Source: an uncultured Odoribacter sp. (GTDB lineage Bacteria > Bacteroidota > Bacteroidia > Bacteroidales > Marinifilaceae). From it: 64,000 nucleotides of DNA. Under the pieces are notes generated by a model, which saw only the letters and a program-made list of their open reading frames with translations, was not told the origin of the DNA and searched no databases. The stretch spans positions 14,723-78,722 of the forward strand of contig UQTM01000002.1 in the NCBI GenBank assembly GCA_900544025.1, read 5' to 3'. Positions within the stretch are counted from its first letter, which is position 1; every line of letters begins with the position of its first letter. Shown here in pieces: positions 318-10,648 of the stretch. The translations under genes and the position numbers were made by a program.

Positions 318-3083
318 ATGAGCGAACAGAATATAGAATTGAAGGGTGTCCGGGTACACAATCTGAAAAATATAGATATAAAAATCGGATTAAATAAGCT
401 GATCGTCGTTACCGGAGTTTCGGGCAGTGGAAAATCATCGCTGGCATTCGATACGCTTTATGCAGAAGGGCAACGCAGATATGTGGAAAGCCTGTCTTCG
501 TATGCCCGTCAGTTTTTAGGCAGATTGAATAAGCCGGAATGCGATTATATTAAAGGGATTCCTCCTGCCGTCGCTATCGAGCAAAAAGTGAATACGTCCA
601 ATCCGCGTTCGACCGTCGGTACTTCTACTGAAATATACGATTACATCAAATTACTATATGCCCGTGCCGGAAAAACCATCTCTCCTATTTCCGGACGTGA
701 AGTGAAACGGGATAATGTAGATGACATTTCGCGTTTCATTTTGGAAAACAACACGGGAAAGATCGTAATTATCCTGTCCCGCCCCGATAATTTAAACGAT
801 CTGGAAGCATTAAAGCTTTTATTAAGCCAGGGATTTACCCGGATAAAAGTAGAAAACGAATTTTTACGGATAGACGATGTGATTAACCGGCAACAAGAAA
901 TCGCTGCCGGAGCGGAAGTTTATCTGGTTATCGACCGTATTTCCATAAACGAAGAGCGGGACACTGTTTCCCGTATTTCAGAATCGGTGGAAACAGCCCT
1001 TTATGAAGGAAACGGAGAATGTTTTATCGAACTCGACGGAAAGTTACATTCTTTCTCCAATCGGTTTGAGGCCGACGGTATGACCTTTGAAGTGCCTACC
1101 GTCAATACATTCAGTTTCAACTCTCCCATCGGCGCCTGCCCACAATGCGAAGGATACGGAAGAATCCTCGGAATCGACGAAGATCTGGTCGTTCCGAACA
1201 AATCGTTAAGCGTATATGAAGAAGCCGTTATGTGCTGGCGGGGTGAGAAAATGAGCGAATGGAAAAACCATTTGGTACAGAATGCCCACAAAGCCGATTT
1301 TCCGGTGCATAAGCCTTACTATGAACTGACGGACACCGAGAAAAAACTTCTGTGGAACGGATGTACGTACTTCCACGGAATTAATGACTTTTTTGCCTAT
1401 CTGGAATCGCAAAAATATAAAATACAAAACCGGGTGATGATAGCCCGCTACACCGGCAAAACGAAATGCCCTTCCTGCGGAGGCACACGATTGAAACCCG
1501 AGGCCAATTATGTAAAAATCGGTGGGAAAGCCGTTCCCGAATTGGTGGAAATGCCGATCGATGAATTGCAGGATTTTTTTAATCATCTGGAACTGACTCC
1601 TTATCAAAGTAAAGTTGCGGAACGTATTTTACCGGACATTAAAAACCGGCTTGAATTTTTGATGGAGGTCGGATTGGGCTATCTTACCCTGAACCGCCTT
1701 TCTTCATCACTTTCCGGAGGAGAATCGCAGCGAATAAACCTTGCAACTTCTTTAGGTTCCGCCCTGGTCGGTTCATTGTATATTTTAGACGAGCCGAGTA
1801 TCGGTTTACATTCCAGAGATACCGAACAATTGATCCGGGTGTTGAAAAAATTACGCGACCTCGGCAATACGGTGATCGTAGTGGAACACGACGAGGATAT
1901 CATCCGCGCTGCCGACGAAATAATCGATATCGGCCCGGAAGCAGGACGTTTAGGAGGCGAAGTGGTTTTTCAGGGAAATATGAAACAACTGGAAACAGCC
2001 GGAACATTTACCGCCGACTATATTTTTGGTAAACGAAAAATTGAAGTGCCCTCACATAGAAGACAATGGAATAAGAAGATAAGAATTAGCGGGGCAACAG
2101 AAAACAACCTGAAAAACATTACGGTGGATTTTCCTTTGGGGATTATGACCGCAGTAACGGGAGTCAGCGGCTCGGGAAAAAGTACGTTGATCAAAACAAT
2201 TTTAGTCCCTGCCCTGAAAAAACAATTCGGAGATAATACAGACCGTAGCGGTAGCTTCGACAAACTTTCAGGCGATCTGCGCGCTATCAGCGGAGTTGAA
2301 TTTATCGACCAAAATCCGATCGGTAAATCCACCCGTTCCAATCCGGTGACCTATATTAAAGCGTGGGATGATATCCGTAAAATATTTGCGGACACACAAG
2401 CCTCTAAAATGCAGGGATTTAAGCCATCTCATTTTTCTTTTAACGTTCCCGGAGGACGTTGTGAAGAGTGTCAGGGAGAAGGGATTATCAAAGTTGAAAT
2501 GCAATTTATGGCGGATGTTTTCCTGGAATGTGAGCATTGTAAGGGAAAACGCTTCAAAGAAGATGTTCTGGAAATCAAATACAAGGATAAAAATATCTAT
2601 GATATTCTGGAAATGACCGTAAACCAGGCTTTGGAATTCTTTTCAACCGGAAACGGGCACAGTGAACGCAGTATTGTCGAAAAATTGCAAAAATTAGTCG
2701 ATGTAGGTTTGGGATACGTGAAACTCGGCCAATCTTCCAGTACGTTGAGCGGTGGAGAAAGCCAGCGGGTGAAATTAGCCTACCATTTGAGCCGGGAAAA
2801 TGCCGAGCCCACCCTGTTTGTTTTCGACGAGCCGACGACCGGTTTGCATTTCCATGATATTCACAAGCTGATGTCCTCGCTCGATGCCCTGATCCGAAGA
2901 GGGCATTCGGTGTTAATCATCGAGCACAATATGGATGTAATCAAATGTGCAGATTACGTCATCGACTTAGGGCCGGAAGGAGGAAAAGAGGGCGGCAGCG
3001 TGGTATTCACCGGAACTCCGGAAGAGTTAGCGCAATGCCCGCAATCATACACGGGACGTTATTTGAAAGAAAAGCTGAATTAA
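318..3083 (+). CDS. uvrA: Excinuclease ABC subunit A (UvrA)
   Basis: [61 protein letters not shown] has two ABC ATPase modules (second [10 protein letters not shown]), zinc-finger Cys pairs and LSGGESQR signatures. Start moved from 291 to the internal ATG at 318. Confidence 0.95.
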
Positions 3084-3110
3084 TTATAAATTGCGTGCAT
3101 ATAAATACGA

Positions 3111-3872
3111 ATGAAGAAAATTCTTGATCTTACCGTAAAGGAAAACCGAAAGCTTAATGAAGATAACTTCTTATTGGTTCTCCATTCTCCTGAATTACCC
3201 GAAATCCGGGCGGGACAGTTCGTTAATGTAAAAATAGAGGATTCTCCTTCCACTTTTTTACGCCGCCCGATCTCCGTACACGATGTGAATGCGAAAGAAG
3301 GGTTGCTTTATCTGTTGGTGAAGATAGCGGGACAGGGAACCGCCAAATTATCCACCATACGACCGGGAGAAAAGTTGAATGTTATATTACCATTGGGTAA
3401 TTGGTTCACGCAACCTCAGAAAGGCAGATGTTTACTGGTGGGTGGCGGAGTTGGAATAGCTCCACTGCTTCATTTATCCAGGGAATTACAGGCCAAAGGC
3501 TTATCTCCTGTCGTGCTGATCGGAACCCGTAGTTCAAAAGATATCGTACTGCAAAAAGAATTTGAAAAATATGCGACAGTACACTACACAACCGAAGACG
3601 GAAGCTACGGAGAGAAAGGTTATCCGACACAACATTCCATACTGGACACAACGTTCGACTATATTTTTTGTTGTGGCCCGGAGCCTATGATGAAAGCAGT
3701 TGCAAGGTATGCTTATTCTAAAAATATTGATTGTGAAGTATCTTTGGAAAATATGATGGCATGTGGCATCGGAGCTTGTCTTTGTTGTGTAAACGATACG
3801 AAAGAAGGGCATAAATGTGTATGTACGGATGGACCGGTATTTAATATAAATGATTTGAAATGGCAGATTTAA
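3111..3872 (+). CDS. pyrK: Dihydroorotate dehydrogenase electron-transfer subunit (PyrK; FAD/NAD-binding, 2Fe-2S)
   Basis: Ferredoxin-reductase-like fold with GGGVGIAPL and a C-terminal Cys cluster (CGIGACLCC). It directly precedes pyrD with a 13 bp overlap. Confidence 0.85.
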
Positions 3873-4765
3873 ATGTAAATATTAACGGGCTGGATTTAAA
3901 AAATCCGGTACTTACCGCCTCTGGCACTTTTGGTTACGGTACGGAATTTCAAGATTTCATCCAATTGGAACAATTAGGAGGATTTATTGTAAAAGGCACT
4001 ACCCTGAACCACCGGGAAGGTAATCCTTATCCCCGTATGGCGGAAACTCCTTCCGGCATGCTGAATGCCGTAGGGTTGCAAAATAAAGGAGTCGATTACT
4101 TTATCGAGCATATTTATCCGGAAATCAAAGATATACCGACCAATATACTGGTAAATGTTTCAGGTTCTACCATTCCCGACTACGTGGCAACAGCCGAAAA
4201 AATCAATGCATTGGAAAACATTCCGGGAATCGAATTGAATATCTCTTGTCCCAATGTAAAAGAAGGCGGAATGGCTTTCGGCACCAGTTGTCACTCTGCC
4301 GCTGAAGTGGTTAAAGCCGTCCGGCAGGTTTACCGGAAACATTTAATGGTAAAACTATCTCCCAATGTCACCGACATTCAGGAGATTGCCTTGGCGGCGG
4401 AAACGGAAGGAGCCGATTCCGTTTCCCTGATCAATACTATTTTGGGGATGGCAATCGATGCCCGAAAGCGCCGCCCGCTATTGAGCACGATTACCGGAGG
4501 ACTCAGCGGGGCTTGTGTAAAACCCATCGCCCTCCGGATGGTATGGCAGGTTGCCAAAGCCGTTCACATTCCTGTCGTCGGGTTAGGCGGAATTATGAAT
4601 GCCACCGATGCAATCGAATTTATACTGGCAGGAGCTTCGGCCATACAGATAGGAACGGCCAACTTTATCGATCCGGCAGTCACCGTCAAGGTAATTGAAG
4701 GGATTAATGCTTATCTGGATGAAAATGGATTTAAATCCGTAAAAGAAATTGTCGGATTGATATAA
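3860..4765 (+). CDS. pyrD: Dihydroorotate dehydrogenase catalytic subunit (class 1B PyrD)
   Basis: [27 protein letters not shown] is the canonical class 1 DHODH N-terminus; TIM-barrel flavoprotein motifs ([16 protein letters not shown]). Confidence 0.9.
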
Positions 4766-4795: not shown

Positions 4796-5242
4796 TTACA
4801 ACTCTTTGGAGTAATCCTCAAAACTCCCGTCACTGAAAAACAATATAATCCTCTTGATTTTTTTAGTGACGGGAGCTTGTATTAAAGCCTCGGCCACTTC
4901 TGCCTCTATTGCAGGAGCCGGTTTTACGGACGATTGAGAGTTGTCGGCCGCTTTTTCTTGTTTTTCAGTCCCTGTTGTTTCAAATAAAGATTTTTGTACA
5001 GCAACCTCGGTTTGCTTTTCTTTATCCGGTGTAATATTGAATAATTCTCCCTTACCGGAAATCAACCAGTTTAGGTTTACATCGGGAAATGCCTGTGCTA
5101 TTTTATCCAGCACATCAAATCCCGGCTTACTACGACCGTTTAAGATATGCGACATTGCAGAAGCATTCACCTTAATAAGGGCGGCGAACTTTGTCGCTGT
5201 CAATCCTTTTTCCTCTAATAGCTGCTTAAATCTTTCTTGCAT
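4796..5242 (-). CDS. XRE-family helix-turn-helix transcriptional regulator (HTH N-domain plus C-terminal extension), 148 aa
   Basis: N-terminal LTATKFAALIKVNASAMSHILNGRSKPGFDVLDKIAQAF is a Cro/C1-type HTH. Palindromic candidate operators lie immediately upstream (see 5258-5306). Confidence 0.75.
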   Translation of the reverse strand: MQERFKQLLEEKGLTATKFAALIKVNASAMSHILNGRSKPGFDVLDKIAQAFPDVNLNWLISGKGELFNITPDKEKQTEVAVQKSLFETTGTEKQEKAADNSQSSVKPAPAIEAEVAEALIQAPVTKKIKRIILFFSDGSFEDYSKEL

Positions 5243-5257
5243 ATTGTAATAAATATC

Positions 5258-5271
5258 ATTACAAATGTAAT
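5258..5271. promoter_or_regulatory. 14 bp perfect palindrome ATTACAAATGTAAT (candidate operator, copy 1), 16 bp upstream of the XRE regulator start codon
   Basis: Read directly from the sequence. Core is TTACA-N2-TGTAA. Confidence 0.5.
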
Positions 5272-5292
5272 TAGAATCTTTTAATTTACAAA

Positions 5293-5306
5293 ATTACATT
5301 TGTAAC
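5293..5306. promoter_or_regulatory. Palindrome ATTACATTTGTAAC (candidate operator, copy 2)
   Basis: Reverse complement of copy 1, 35 bp away. Confidence 0.5.
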
Positions 5307-5725
5307 GGTCGCACTTTACTTCTGTAAATCGATTAAATGTGTTAGTTGTATATAAATAGCTAATGTTTTGATTTTTAATTTTTTACTATATGTAGAAAAC
5401 GAATAAAGCATATAAATACTTGACAACAAGCAGTATAGTGTATTTCAAGAAATAGAATCCACCTCATTTTTAAATGAAGTAAAACATGAATAAATATATT
5501 GTATATAACTGATAATTCAACACATATAAAAAATTATAATATTAAAAATCCCCATTTTTCCGCTTTAATCATCCAGAGTCGCTTATCGATCTTGAATTAA
5601 AATATTACAAAATGGCATTTTAATCATTGGTTATTAGTATATTATATATACGAAAAATAATTATGCATATTTTGTGCATAACTCTTATTGACATCTGTAA
5701 AAACGTCTTTCTATCTTGGTTTCAT

Positions 5726-5739
5726 ATTACATTTGTAAT
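5726..5739. promoter_or_regulatory. Palindrome ATTACATTTGTAAT (candidate operator, copy 3)
   Basis: Exact inverted copy of 5258-5271, about 455 bp away and on the aminopeptidase side of the intergenic region. Confidence 0.45.
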
Positions 5740-5775
5740 TAAACAGCCCTCCCTACCCTTTTTATTTCTGTAAAG

Positions 5776-5787
5776 TTACAGTTGTAA
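5776..5787. promoter_or_regulatory. Degenerate palindrome TTACAGTTGTAA (copy 4, one mismatch); a further half-site-rich TTACATTTGA lies at 5878-5887
   Basis: Read directly from the sequence. Confidence 0.35.
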
Positions 5788-5909
5788 CACGAGAACATAT
5801 ACGCTGATTTCTTATACATCTGTTACGGCGTTTTTAGTGTCGTGCTCTTTCCCTTTTGTAATATCACTTAATTCTTATTACATTTGATGAAATTTAAAAA
5901 ATTCCGTTT

Positions 5910-7688
5910 ATGACGATAAATGAAAAACTTTCCGCTCTCCGAGAGATTATGGAGAGAGAATGTATAGACGCCTATATAATATCGGGAACAGATCCCCACA
6001 ATAGTGAATACCTTCCGGCAGCCTGGCAGCAACGGGAATGGATATCCGGTTTTACCGGCTCTTTCGGAACAGTAGTCGTTACCCTCGGAGAGGCCGGGTT
6101 ATGGACAGATTCCCGTTATTTTATCCAGGCAGAAAAGCAGCTGGAAGGCAGCGGTATCCGGATGCATAAGCTAAGGGTTCCGGATGCCGTGGATTACCCG
6201 GAATGGCTGGCTCAAACTTTAACTCCGGATAGCAGGGTCGGCTTAGACAGCTTTTGTACTTCTGTCAATGCAATGAAACAGTTGCAAAGCACACTAAATC
6301 CGAAGGGTATCAAAGTTGTGGAAAAGACAGATTTGTTGGGAGAAATATGGCTGGATCGTCCCGCTTTGCCTGAAACTCCGGTATTTCCCGTAAAGACGGA
6401 AGTTGCCGGAAAATCGGTTAAAGAAAAACTTCAAAAGATACGGGATTACCTTGCAGAAAATGAATTGGATTACTATTTATTCAGTGCATTGGATGAAATA
6501 GCTTGGCTGTATAATATCAGATGTAAAGATATTCCTTATAATCCGGTTGCGATCAGCTATGCCATTGTGGGGCGAGAACACTCCTATTGGTTTGTGAAAC
6601 AAAGGAAAGTGTCGCAGGAAATAGTTTCTCTTTTAAAAAATGAAGGAATCGAAATCAGGGATTACCACCATTTATTCCTGTTTTTGGAAGAGCTTCCCCA
6701 AACAGCCCGTTTCTCTGTGGATACCAATACATTAAATTTTGCCGTATATCATAAAATTGCTTCAAAGTTTCCGGTTACCGAAAAAGAATCTCCCGTAATT
6801 TTAGCCAAGGCCGTCAAAAATGCGATTGAAATTGCAGGAATCCGCGAGGCGTGCATCAAAGATAGTGTTGCCCTGACTAAATTCTTTTATTGGATGGAAA
6901 GTAATATCGACAACCATTTGACTGAAACAAGCGTATCCGATAAATTGACAGCTCTCCGAGCCGAAAACGAAGGCTACATCTCGGACAGTTTCGGCAATAT
7001 TTCTGCTTATGGGAAAAACGCAGCCCTTCCACATTATTCTGCTGTACGGGGAAAAGATGCGGAATTGCAAGCCCGGGGCTTGTATCTGGTAGATTCAGGT
7101 GGCCAATATACCCACGGAACGACCGATATTACCCGCACAATCCCTTTAGGAGAATTAACCGACCAGGAAAAGGAAGATTATACTTTAGTTTTACAGGGGA
7201 TGATCGATTTGAGTCTTTGCCGCTTTCCTAAAGGAACAAGCGGTTGTAATATAGATATTATTGCCCGGCAACCTTTGTGGCAAAGATTAAAGAATTTCGG
7301 ACATGGCACAGGTCACGGAATCGGCTTTTTCCTGAATGTACATGAAGGGCCGCAGGCTATTCGCCAGGATTTAAAACAGCAACCGATTCTTCCCGGAATG
7401 CTGACTTCCGACGAGCCGGGACTTTACCGGGAGGGTTTCTATGGTATCCGGCACGAAAATATGATCCTTTGTGTGCCTATCGAGAAAAATGAATTTGGGG
7501 AATGGCTTGGATTTGAAACATTAACACTTTGTTATTTCGATACTTCTGCCCTGCTTATTGAACTCTTAAGTGAAGAGCAGAAAAATTGGCTGAATGATTA
7601 TCATCGCAAGGTATATGAAAAAACTGCACCTTTTCTATCGCCCGAAGAAAAGCAATGGCTGTTCGAAAAAACAAAGCCTGTCCAATAA
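5910..7688 (+). CDS. Xaa-Pro aminopeptidase (aminopeptidase P family, M24B)
   Basis: N-terminal creatinase/prolidase N-domain (LSALREIMERECIDAYIISGTDPHNSEY), C-terminal pita-bread metal ligands (HGTGHGIGFFLNVHEGP) and an ~590 aa length typical of the long AMP_N-containing APP form. Confidence 0.85.
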   Translation: MTINEKLSALREIMERECIDAYIISGTDPHNSEYLPAAWQQREWISGFTGSFGTVVVTLGEAGLWTDSRYFIQAEKQLEGSGIRMHKLRVPDAVDYPEWLAQTLTPDSRVGLDSFCTSVNAMKQLQSTLNPKGIKVVEKTDLLGEIWLDRPALPETPVFPVKTEVAGKSVKEKLQKIRDYLAENELDYYLFSALDEIAWLYNIRCKDIPYNPVAISYAIVGREHSYWFVKQRKVSQEIVSLLKNEGIEIRDYHHLFLFLEELPQTARFSVDTNTLNFAVYHKIASKFPVTEKESPVILAKAVKNAIEIAGIREACIKDSVALTKFFYWMESNIDNHLTETSVSDKLTALRAENEGYISDSFGNISAYGKNAALPHYSAVRGKDAELQARGLYLVDSGGQYTHGTTDITRTIPLGELTDQEKEDYTLVLQGMIDLSLCRFPKGTSGCNIDIIARQPLWQRLKNFGHGTGHGIGFFLNVHEGPQAIRQDLKQQPILPGMLTSDEPGLYREGFYGIRHENMILCVPIEKNEFGEWLGFETLTLCYFDTSALLIELLSEEQKNWLNDYHRKVYEKTAPFLSPEEKQWLFEKTKPVQ

Positions 7689-9662: not shown

Positions 9663-10040
9663 TCAATATTCGGGACGCCGTAAAATTTCGCTGCCGATAA
9701 TAGCCTGCCGGAGATTAAAGTGCCTTAACTCTTCGTTTTCCGATTCGGTATTCTCCTCCGGCACGGAAATAAATAAGGGCTGTTCTTCTGTTTCTTTATA
9801 GCTGTCTCCCGGCATAGACATTTCTTCCCTATTTTCTTGTGTCGAAGATTTGATCGCTATATCGGGATCGTTAAACCATTCAACCGTTTCTTCCCTCTCC
9901 ATTTCCGGTACGTATTCCCGGGGAATGTCCACAGGACTGTGAGAAGTTTTTTTCGTTCCCGATTTAATCATCCCGATGATTCCTGCAACGACAACGACCA
10001 ATAAAGAAATCCAATCGAAATCAGCTTTTACAATACCCAT
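9663..10040 (-). CDS. Hypothetical small membrane-anchored acidic protein (125 aa)
   Basis: N-terminal TM (WISLLVVVVAGIIGMI) followed by a highly acidic Glu-rich tail. Its stop codon abuts the stop of the convergent anti-sigma gene with zero spacer. Confidence 0.5.
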   Translation of the reverse strand: MGIVKADFDWISLLVVVVAGIIGMIKSGTKKTSHSPVDIPREYVPEMEREETVEWFNDPDIAIKSSTQENREEMSMPGDSYKETEEQPLFISVPEENTESENEELRHFNLRQAIIGSEILRRPEY

Positions 10041-10177: not shown

Positions 10178-10648
10178 ATGAAGTCAAAAATAATATTTTT
10201 TTCTTTATTCCTTTTATCTTTAAACGGAATAATGAGTTGTGAAGAGAAATTACGGGACAAGCATATTATTCCTTTCGTTCCGGTAAATACCACGATTAAA
10301 CTGAATCTGGGAGGAGAAAACGAATTGATGTGGAAAAATAATCCGAAATATTTTTCCATTTCGACCCCTAATGCAGAATCGTTGGGCTATAAAGGGCATG
10401 GCATTGTAATCTTTACGGAAGATGCAAAAGAATTTCATTGTTTCGATGCAACTTGTACCAACTGTCCCGACTTAGAATCTTATTTCACACAGAAAGATTT
10501 GAAAGGAAATATCGCCATCTGCCCCAAATGCGGAACGGAATTCAGCCTGTTGTACGGACAGCCTTTCGGCAACGATTCAAAGATATATCCCTTAAAAGAA
10601 TACCCCATCAGAAGAAGTGGTGATCTTCTGATCGTTAGCTATAATTAA
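10178..10648 (+). CDS. Hypothetical lipoprotein with a 4-Cys zinc-ribbon/rubredoxin-like (Rieske-shaped) site
   Basis: Lipobox signal MKSKIIFFSLFLLSLNGIMSC. Two CxxC knuckles (CTNC ...21 aa... CPKC) sit in a Rieske-like sequence context but with Cys where Rieske has His. Confidence 0.55.
   Translation: MKSKIIFFSLFLLSLNGIMSCEEKLRDKHIIPFVPVNTTIKLNLGGENELMWKNNPKYFSISTPNAESLGYKGHGIVIFTEDAKEFHCFDATCTNCPDLESYFTQKDLKGNIAICPKCGTEFSLLYGQPFGNDSKIYPLKEYPIRRSGDLLIVSYN

Follow-up and report, generated by a model that had tools for sequence, protein, structure and literature searches.

Introduction

Among repressors of the Cro/CI type, lambda CI acts through OR1-3 and OL1-3, two clusters of about three palindromic operators, one of which lies over its own promoter, and so combines autoregulation with cooperation between the clusters. 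Here, we describe a locus of similar layout: a 667-bp gap (positions 5243-5909) between the gene for a 148-amino-acid (aa) XRE-family helix-turn-helix (HTH) regulator and pepP (aminopeptidase P), found in a 64,000-nucleotide stretch of DNA from an uncultured Odoribacter sp. (GenBank assembly GCA_900544025.1, contig UQTM01000002.1, positions 14,723 to 78,722; ‘the window’, in which all coordinates below are given). The gap holds six palindromes of the form TTACA-NN-TGTAA, in a proximal (O1-O3) and a distal (O4-O6) cluster. We think it likely that this is the cis-regulatory region of the adjacent protein, serving a multi-operator autorepression that most likely involves a looped or higher-order complex.

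As for lambda CI, a Cro/CI-type HTH repressor is accompanied by two clusters of about three palindromic operators, one set over its own (predicted) promoter, and the logic we propose—autoregulation plus cooperation between clusters—is alike. The two differ in that the clusters here are 0.3-0.5 kb apart rather than 2.3 kb, the regulator gene stands outside the putative loop, the protein has no S24/CI C-terminal oligomerisation domain, and the locus is a conserved chromosomal one rather than a prophage. The best structural matches for the DNA-binding domain are 434 Cro and repressor, SinR, DdrO and the controller (C) proteins, all of which form dimers on short palindromic operators; autoregulation through adjacent operators that overlap a promoter is a further feature of the C proteins and 434. 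Identity to these proteins is, however, just 16-30%, their operators differ from TTACA-N2-TGTAA in sequence and spacing, and their C-terminal part is unrelated. A third parallel is offered by IHF-assisted complexes (P1 parS; the gal and deo loops of E. coli), since here too the site clusters flank a spacer, which carries sites that resemble the E. coli IHF consensus, WATCAR-N4-TTR, suggesting assisted bending; the likeness here is one of sequence, at eight of nine positions of that consensus.

Within the same phylum, the non-canonical LexA of Bacteroidetes pairs a CI-like HTH with an S24 peptidase domain, is encoded beside translesion polymerase genes, and uses operators with an N5 spacer (CTAA-N5-TTAG, GGA-N5-TCC), one variant of which reads TTAC-AAATT-GTAA (PMC8565304). 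The regulator described here shares the CI-like HTH and an operator close to that variant, but its N4 rather than N5 spacing, the lack of an S24 domain and the lack of an SOS gene context argue against its being a LexA of this kind. In kind, the system as proposed is an ordinary one, an autoregulated Cro/CI-type repressor with multiple operators; its family is uncharacterised and very widespread, and the cis-architecture unusually elaborate and conserved.

An array of palindromes upstream of the regulator gene

The gap is long and AT-rich, with 25.3% GC where the window averages 43.4%, and contains no open reading frame (ORF) longer than 48 aa, in agreement with an initial annotation made from the window's sequence. 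The count of at least four palindromes given there proves to be an understatement: there are six TTACA-NN-TGTAA sites, four of them exact copies of the TTACANNTGTAA core (O1, O2, O5 and O6; Table 1) and two, previously overlooked, with one mismatch (O3, TTACTTCTGTAA, and O4, TGACATCTGTAA), whose positions are kept in other species. Some details also change. The copy reported at 5293 (O2) is exact over its 12-bp core, although the 14-mer form ascribed to it is wrong, ending in C; the copy at 5776 (O6), listed with one mismatch, matches the core exactly; and the supposed operator remnant at 5878 is instead the predicted -7 box of pepP, where other species keep TAnnTTTG and not TTACA.

All four exact copies present in the window fall inside the gap, where 0.09 would be expected in the window as a whole; none of 100 shuffles reached four. 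As the gap is AT-rich it was also shuffled separately, and 5000 dinucleotide shuffles of the gap alone gave a mean of 0.007 exact sites, with none containing two or more. When up to one mismatch is allowed, the window contains seven sites, of which six are within the gap. The palindromes are a real array, robust both statistically and phylogenetically, and tied to the XRE gene family.

Table 1. Coordinates of the regulator locus in the window; operator positions with a minus sign are counted from the regulator ATG
Feature	Position	Strand	Sequence or match	Basis or remark
XRE/Cro-C1 regulator gene, 148 aa	4796-5242	-		Pfam, AlphaFold (AF2) model, Foldseek, family alignments
O1, proximal operator, -28	5259-5270		exact; gene strand TTACATTTGTAA	overlaps regulator -7 box
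Regulator -7 box (predicted)	5262-5269	-	TACATTTG = TAnnTTTG	conserved at -27 in every Odoribacter species
Regulator -33 element (predicted)	5289-5292	-	TTTG	19 nt upstream of -7 box, directly flanks O2
O2, proximal operator, -63	5294-5305		exact	position conserved, central dinucleotide variable
O3, proximal operator, -85	5316-5327		TTACTTCTGTAA; one mismatch to TTACANNTGTAA	exact TTAC-N4-GTAA
Spacer element copy 2, core (IHF-consensus-like)	5502-5515	-	TTATCAGTTATATA (gene strand)	aligned Odoribacter block ATTATCAG; motif enrichment; 105-118 bp pairing with copy 1
Spacer element copy 1, ~85 bp	5587-5666	-	core AACCAATGATTAA (plus-strand 5620-5632)	nhmmer E = 0.004; resembles WATCAR-N4-TTR
O4, weak distal operator, -458	5689-5700		TGACATCTGTAA; one mismatch	
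O5, distal operator, -496	5727-5738		exact	
O6, distal operator, -545	5776-5787		exact	
pepP promoter (predicted)	5855-5886	+	-33 TTTG 5855-5858; -7 TACATTTG 5879-5886	adjoins operator array, not part of it
pepP (aminopeptidase P) gene	5910-7688	+		

We compared the region across 13 Odoribacter species, between which identity of the regulator protein falls as low as 50% (the window's regulator occurs with identical sequence on ~20 gut-metagenome contigs, and its relatives carry the name Odoribacter). Sites at the positions of O1 (-28 to -30), O2 (-63) and O3 (-85 to -87) are found in all 13; those of O5 (-487 to -498) and O6 (-531 to -546) in most; and at the O4 position a site with no more than one mismatch is present in about half. 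The TTACA and TGTAA arms are conserved and the two central bases free at all sites but O1, while the remainder of the gap aligns poorly and retains its length. Between O6 and the pepP promoter the window carries an extra ~65-70 bp (~5790-5855), shared with the conspecific locus L004 and with L011 (78% identical protein) and missing in most other Odoribacter species (e.g. L012, L013); L019 and L021 also carry added sequence at this point.

The same comparison bears on the suggestion that the segment between the 5258 and 5726 copies, described as a 14-bp inverted-repeat pair, is an invertible, phase-variable promoter. A 19-nt pair, 89% complementary, does bracket 444 bp, but the inverted pairing is trivial: each site is itself palindromic, and the same pair therefore scores as a direct repeat too. 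Beyond this, the nine conspecific contigs that span the gap (from a comparison of 10 contigs with the identical protein) and all 13 Odoribacter species are collinear, an element in the spacer (see below) shares the strand of the regulator in each of the 44 sources that carry it, no conserved promoter lies inside the segment, and there is no recombinase gene within ~7 kb. Inversion is contradicted by these observations, and we attach practically no weight to it.

Two operator clusters as a family-wide feature

A protein profile search returned at least 5000 clusters (5002, at 50% identity) with E <= 1e-10. Full-length proteins are common among the top-scoring members and follow the same plan—HTH, variable linker and a C-terminal KxIxRIIxFFxDGSFExY—with source names placing them in the Bacteroidales, Marinilabiliales and Marinifilaceae; none has a functional name, all annotations being ‘helix-turn-helix’ or ‘hypothetical’. 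A literature search on the exact motif, the protein signature and the Bacteroides thetaiotaomicron orthologue BT_0890 (see below) found no relevant paper in the library searched. Origin from a mobile element was considered and set aside, phage and plasmid collections giving just weak or partial phage matches; the plasmid collection also yielded three matches from Bacteroidales (Parabacteroides, Bacteroides, Phocaeicola), which seem to be pieces of chromosome entered there as plasmids.

The operator pattern was examined in 80 metagenome loci of a distant subfamily, relatives which we put at ~35-45% identity (36-65% to the subfamily query in the best aligned segment). Almost all have TTACATTTGTAA at about -28, with two more sites ~24 and ~48 bp further upstream, and most have a second cluster at -350 to -625. 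With 93 loci pooled, exact sites reach 3.56/kb at -700 to -1, against 0.048/kb in 336 kb of other sequence; the enrichment beside relatives of the regulator that the initial annotation had proposed to look for is thus 75-fold within 700 bp upstream of family genes. In this pooled sample the distribution is bimodal, the zone from -350 to -130 being nearly empty, and neighbouring proximal sites are spaced by 22-24 bp (79 cases), 35 bp (14) or 47 bp (8). At least one distal site is present in 66 of the 77 loci with enough upstream sequence, and at least two in 50.

Two further observations concern the arrangement of sites. Operator spacings across all family loci are multiples of ~11.7 bp (23-24, 35, 47, 70 and 82-83). 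In L070, L073 and L090, two abutting operators (e.g. TTACATTTGTAAtATACAAATGTAA) stand directly after the pyrD stop codon and before the next gene, at about +2200 to +2310 from the regulator ATG; they may mark a second target, or form a third cluster on the far side of the HTH-pyrK-pyrD unit, which would then be enclosed by operators.

O1 doubles as a predicted promoter element

The -7 box of Bacteroidetes promoters has the consensus TAnnTTTG, as established in published work on Bacteroides promoters. In every Odoribacter species O1 coincides with a conserved TAnnTTTG at -27 and, over the family, its central dinucleotide is TT on the gene strand (TTACATTTGTAA) in 84 of 90 loci, whereas TT and AA are about equally common at the centre of the other sites. 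This strand bias indicates that O1 doubles as the -7 box, the sole asymmetric constraint that would explain it. After O2, TGTAATTT(T)G is conserved in all Odoribacter species, and the TTTG it contains is the putative -33 element of the regulator promoter, from which transcription is predicted to start ~12-14 nt before the ATG. O1 thus overlaps one core element of this predicted promoter, and O2 directly flanks the other; within the gap, TAnnTTTG is conserved at the regulator and pepP promoters only.

If O1 is the -7 box then autorepression is implied, as repressor bound at O1 and O2 would occlude the promoter. The autoregulatory geometry that had been seen in the two sites nearest the start codon is borne out in this respect, O1 falling on the -7 box and O2 abutting the -33 TTTG, and the conservation of positions and arms alongside varying centres favours the original reading of the palindromes as operators of the adjacent Cro/C1-type regulator. 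We consider it highly probable, on this comparative evidence, that the protein binds the palindromes and represses its own synthesis.

Could the palindromes instead be bound by some other, global factor, or be mere promoter-like AT-rich words, with the regulator incidental? The presence within the motif of TACATTTG, a match to the -7 consensus, lends this some appeal. Only O1 keeps the TTTG, however, the other sites retaining both arms around variable centres; the 75-fold enrichment upstream of family genes, and the location here of six of the seven window sites, also count against it; and the average of 0.007 sites in gap shuffles speaks against a common AT-rich word, a case that the initial annotation had named as one that would overturn its proposal. 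We regard this explanation as very improbable.

A minimal Cro/CI-like regulator

The 148-aa protein matches the Pfam families HTH_19 (40.2 bits) and HTH_3 (38.4 bits), both above cut-offs. In our AF2 model, built on a 28-sequence alignment, residues 1-66 form a domain of five helices (2-12, 16-23, 27-35, 42-51 and 57-62; predicted local distance difference test score, pLDDT, of 96), followed by a disordered linker (residues ~70-125) and a C-terminal beta-hairpin (residues 132-144; pLDDT ~90) that carries the conserved motif KKIKRIILFFxDGSFEDY. Foldseek matches the model to 434 Cro, SinR, DdrO, C proteins and P22 c2, while a profile search of PDB sequences gave no match. As modelled, this is a five-helix HTH_3-type domain of the XRE/Cro-C1 class with a Cro/CI-like fold. 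Three residues of the recognition helix (S28, S31 and H32) and one just after it (R37) are invariant or nearly so, in a family with a mean identity of 35%. An S24/CI C-terminal oligomerisation domain was found in neither Pfam nor NCBIfam, and the model contains only the linker and hairpin beyond the HTH.

A role as a type II antitoxin of the XRE type was also considered and rejected: there is no adjacent co-transcribed toxin gene, the neighbours being pyrD/pyrK and pepP, holA or a symporter gene.

The distal cluster and the spacer

Upstream of the regulator gene an ORF-free stretch of 0.5-1.1 kb is retained across Bacteroidia, and the distal cluster is present there with various upstream genes (pepP, a dicarboxylate symporter gene, holA and others). 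An exact distal site occurs in 21 of 32 loci with a divergent upstream gene and in 9 of 21 with a co-oriented one. That the cluster recurs whatever the upstream gene or its orientation argues that it belongs to the regulator's own unit.

This bears directly on the possibility that O4-O6 are operators for the divergent pepP promoter, in the manner of a classic divergent regulator-target pair. Within Odoribacter the synteny of pepP and the HTH gene is conserved. A TAnnTTTG, though not the TTACA arm, is likewise kept ~22-29 nt ahead of the pepP start codon, with TTTG 20 nt further upstream, and in most species O6 ends ~10 bp upstream of this -33 element. Against this reading, the distal sites lie upstream of the pepP promoter without overlapping it; in the window's clade the extra segment (~65-70 bp in the window) comes between O6 and that promoter, yet O6 stays at about -545 from the regulator ATG, where species lacking the segment also have it; and outside Odoribacter, where other genes, often co-oriented, stand upstream, the distal clusters are still there. 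Some control of pepP may occur locally in Odoribacter, as a side effect, but it would leave the pattern across the family unexplained, and as the purpose of the distal sites we judge it unlikely.

The spacer between the clusters has a conserved element of its own. An analysis of k-mer enrichment in 52 spacers picked out the strand-specific words ATAACCAG and TATCAGT, present in one or two copies, 105-118 bp apart and at a fixed distance from the last distal operator. In 44 sources, the window among them, a hidden Markov model (HMM) of the corresponding ~85-bp unit matches spacers alone, always on the strand of the regulator; it also matches L104 (a genome contig of 4.6 Mb), Parabacteroides distasonis and Bacteroides finegoldii, and found no copy elsewhere in the ~450 kb searched. 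Copy 2 of the window (~5470-5550, minus strand) falls below the nhmmer threshold. Over 50 copies the core of the element reads A-A-(C/T)-C-A-G-N4-(T/A)-T-A, and its resemblance to the IHF consensus leads us to suggest, tentatively, that these elements are sites for a bending protein. The core (AAC-CAG-N4-TTA) is followed after ~28 nt by TACTTCAAT and preceded, ~35 nt upstream, by TTWCAAAYNGTAA, a weak operator-like sequence of 13 bp.

An oriented ~85-bp element within an ORF-free stretch kept across Bacteroidia might also be expected if the spacer encoded a small RNA or protein, with the distal cluster as its promoter-operator and the true target inside the gap; a promoter or small RNA in the spacer had been raised in the initial annotation. 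Against this, the TAnnTTTG box is not conserved in the spacer or distal cluster, nor is any small ORF; a blastp comparison of all stop-to-stop frames with one another gave only noise from translated operator sites. RNAalifold assigns no consensus pairs to 26 copies of the element, and Rfam returned nothing relevant for the region (at E up to 10), for 20 related loci (at gathering thresholds) or for the Bacteroides and Parabacteroides loci (at E up to 0.01). In B. thetaiotaomicron, among the transcription start site (TSS) entries available from PMC7366714, none lies in the equivalent 1.1-kb gap, from the holA terminator to the BT_0890 start. A target within the spacer thus appears quite improbable.

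The AT-rich, ORF-free sequence, its clustered repeats and its IHF-like sites also recall P1 parS or R1 parC, and could in principle mark a replication origin or a centromere-like partition site. We find, however, a single DnaA-box-like 9-mer (with one mismatch) and no cluster of them, a GC skew that keeps its sign at 5.5 kb, and no partition ATPase nearby, and give this reading hardly any credence.

To return to the regulator's own unit, the recurrence and placement of the distal cluster make its cooperation with the proximal cluster, through a loop or wrapped complex, a serious contender, albeit one that we place just short of probable.

Proposed mechanism

In the scheme we favour, dimers of the HTH domain would bind the 12-bp palindrome TTACA-NN-TGTAA. 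The three proximal sites would set these dimers on the regulator's own promoter—O1 as the -7 box, O2 abutting the -33 element and O3 one step further upstream—such that occupied sites would block access of RNA polymerase and the gene would be repressed by its own product. The distal cluster, with two or three sites ~0.4 kb upstream, may cooperate with the proximal one via a DNA loop or a larger wrapped complex; the very AT-rich spacer, with its one or two oriented IHF-consensus-like elements, would aid such looping, and the long disordered linker and conserved C-terminal beta-hairpin could bridge bound dimers.

Several observations weigh against parts of this scheme. The 13-residue hairpin is the sole candidate for an oligomerisation element, and the half-site centres, only 7-8 bp apart, are close together for a dimer of the 434 type. 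In 11 of the 77 loci there is no distal site even at one mismatch, and the distances between distal and proximal sites show no 10.5-bp phasing, the best period, 11.75 bp, being marginal (R = 0.345; reached by 21 of 500 null sets). The eight-of-nine match of the spacer core is to a consensus taken from E. coli. Finally, at the orthologues in Parabacteroides and Bacteroides only half-site repeats are left of the full palindrome even though S28, S31, H32 and R37 persist, which weakens the argument from invariant residues paired with an invariant motif. The loci in question, L105 (P. distasonis, 2160-3000) and L106 (B. finegoldii, 1842-2994), have AT-rich unannotated gaps of 842 and 1154 bp in which the spacer element is kept and the palindrome is replaced by ACANNTGT-type or TTTGTAA/TTTGTGA half-sites; these repeats suggest that the operator has drifted within the Bacteroidales.

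To our knowledge, few transcription-factor binding motifs have been described in Bacteroidota beyond those for polysaccharide utilisation. Here a protein family can be assigned a precise putative operator together with a predicted promoter, in a bipartite architecture that is unusual and is seen in most of the related loci examined, from gut Odoribacter to relatives in environmental metagenomes. If the distal cluster and spacer elements do act jointly with the proximal sites, the locus would represent a compact, chromosomal form of long-range repression that works without a classical oligomerisation domain.

Linkage to dihydroorotate dehydrogenase genes

In 50 of the 80 metagenome loci the regulator gene is followed by genes for dihydroorotate dehydrogenase (DHODH), on the same strand in 47 and convergent in 3. 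Some of these loci have pyrK-pyrD (class 1B), others a class-2-like pyrD of just 25-30% identity. The synteny extends to annotated Parabacteroides (P. distasonis) and Bacteroides (B. finegoldii) records. In Odoribacter the orientation is convergent as well; in the window the pyr genes (3111-4765) run towards the regulator gene and have no operator in front of them.

The syntenic B. thetaiotaomicron orthologue is BT_0890, annotated as hypothetical, with amn (BT_0888), BT_0889, pyrK (BT_0891), BT_0892 and trmD as neighbours; the order is that of B. finegoldii (amn, holA, HTH, pyrK, pyrD, trmD). Data in the supplement of PMC7366714 place the BT_0890 start, mapped by differential RNA sequencing, 72 nt before the ATG, preceded by a TACCTTTG box and, upstream, a run of TTTGTAAT/TTTGTGAT repeats; in the same supplement pyrK has a transcription start of its own. 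This separate pyrK start and the lack of sites at the window pyr genes indicate that the linkage is best described as robust synteny. Retention of the module beside DHODH genes across Bacteroidia suggests that its output affects the locus itself or some linked signal; a functional relation to DHODH itself we consider possible but rather doubtful. Were it so, conserved linkage to either DHODH class would point to an unrecognised layer of control at the locus. The orthology with BT_0890 makes the hypothesis directly testable in a genetically tractable model.

More speculatively, and in our view on the unlikely side, the whole 0.5-1 kb region may be a conserved Bacteroidia ‘repressosome’: six operators on a ~11.7-bp lattice, together with one or two oriented bending elements, gathered into one nucleoprotein complex by a minimal Cro-like protein bridged via its linker and hairpin, and acting as a lineage-specific controller linked to DHODH and hence to pyrimidine or redox status. 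We know of no pyrimidine regulator in the phylum.

Other genes near the array in the window are uvrA, pyrK, pyrD, pepP, and those for an extracytoplasmic function (ECF) sigma factor and an outer membrane protein (OMP)-like protein, purH and mreB, along with two Pfam-negative ORFs of 125 aa (9663-10040) and 156 aa (10178-10648). The gap between uvrA and pyrK measures 28 bp (3083-3111) and is without an operator; pyrK-pyrD is probably co-transcribed with uvrA in the window lineage. At the far end of these genes, 60 nt past the pyrD stop codon (4765) and within the 3' coding end of the regulator gene, we see a strong hairpin with a stem of ~16-19 bp (CTCCCGTCACT...AGTGACGGGAG; 4825-4876); the surrounding 135 nt have a folding energy of -35.2 kcal/mol (z = -4.9). 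The hairpin overlaps the codons of the conserved C-terminal motif and may be the terminator of the convergent pyrK-pyrD transcript.

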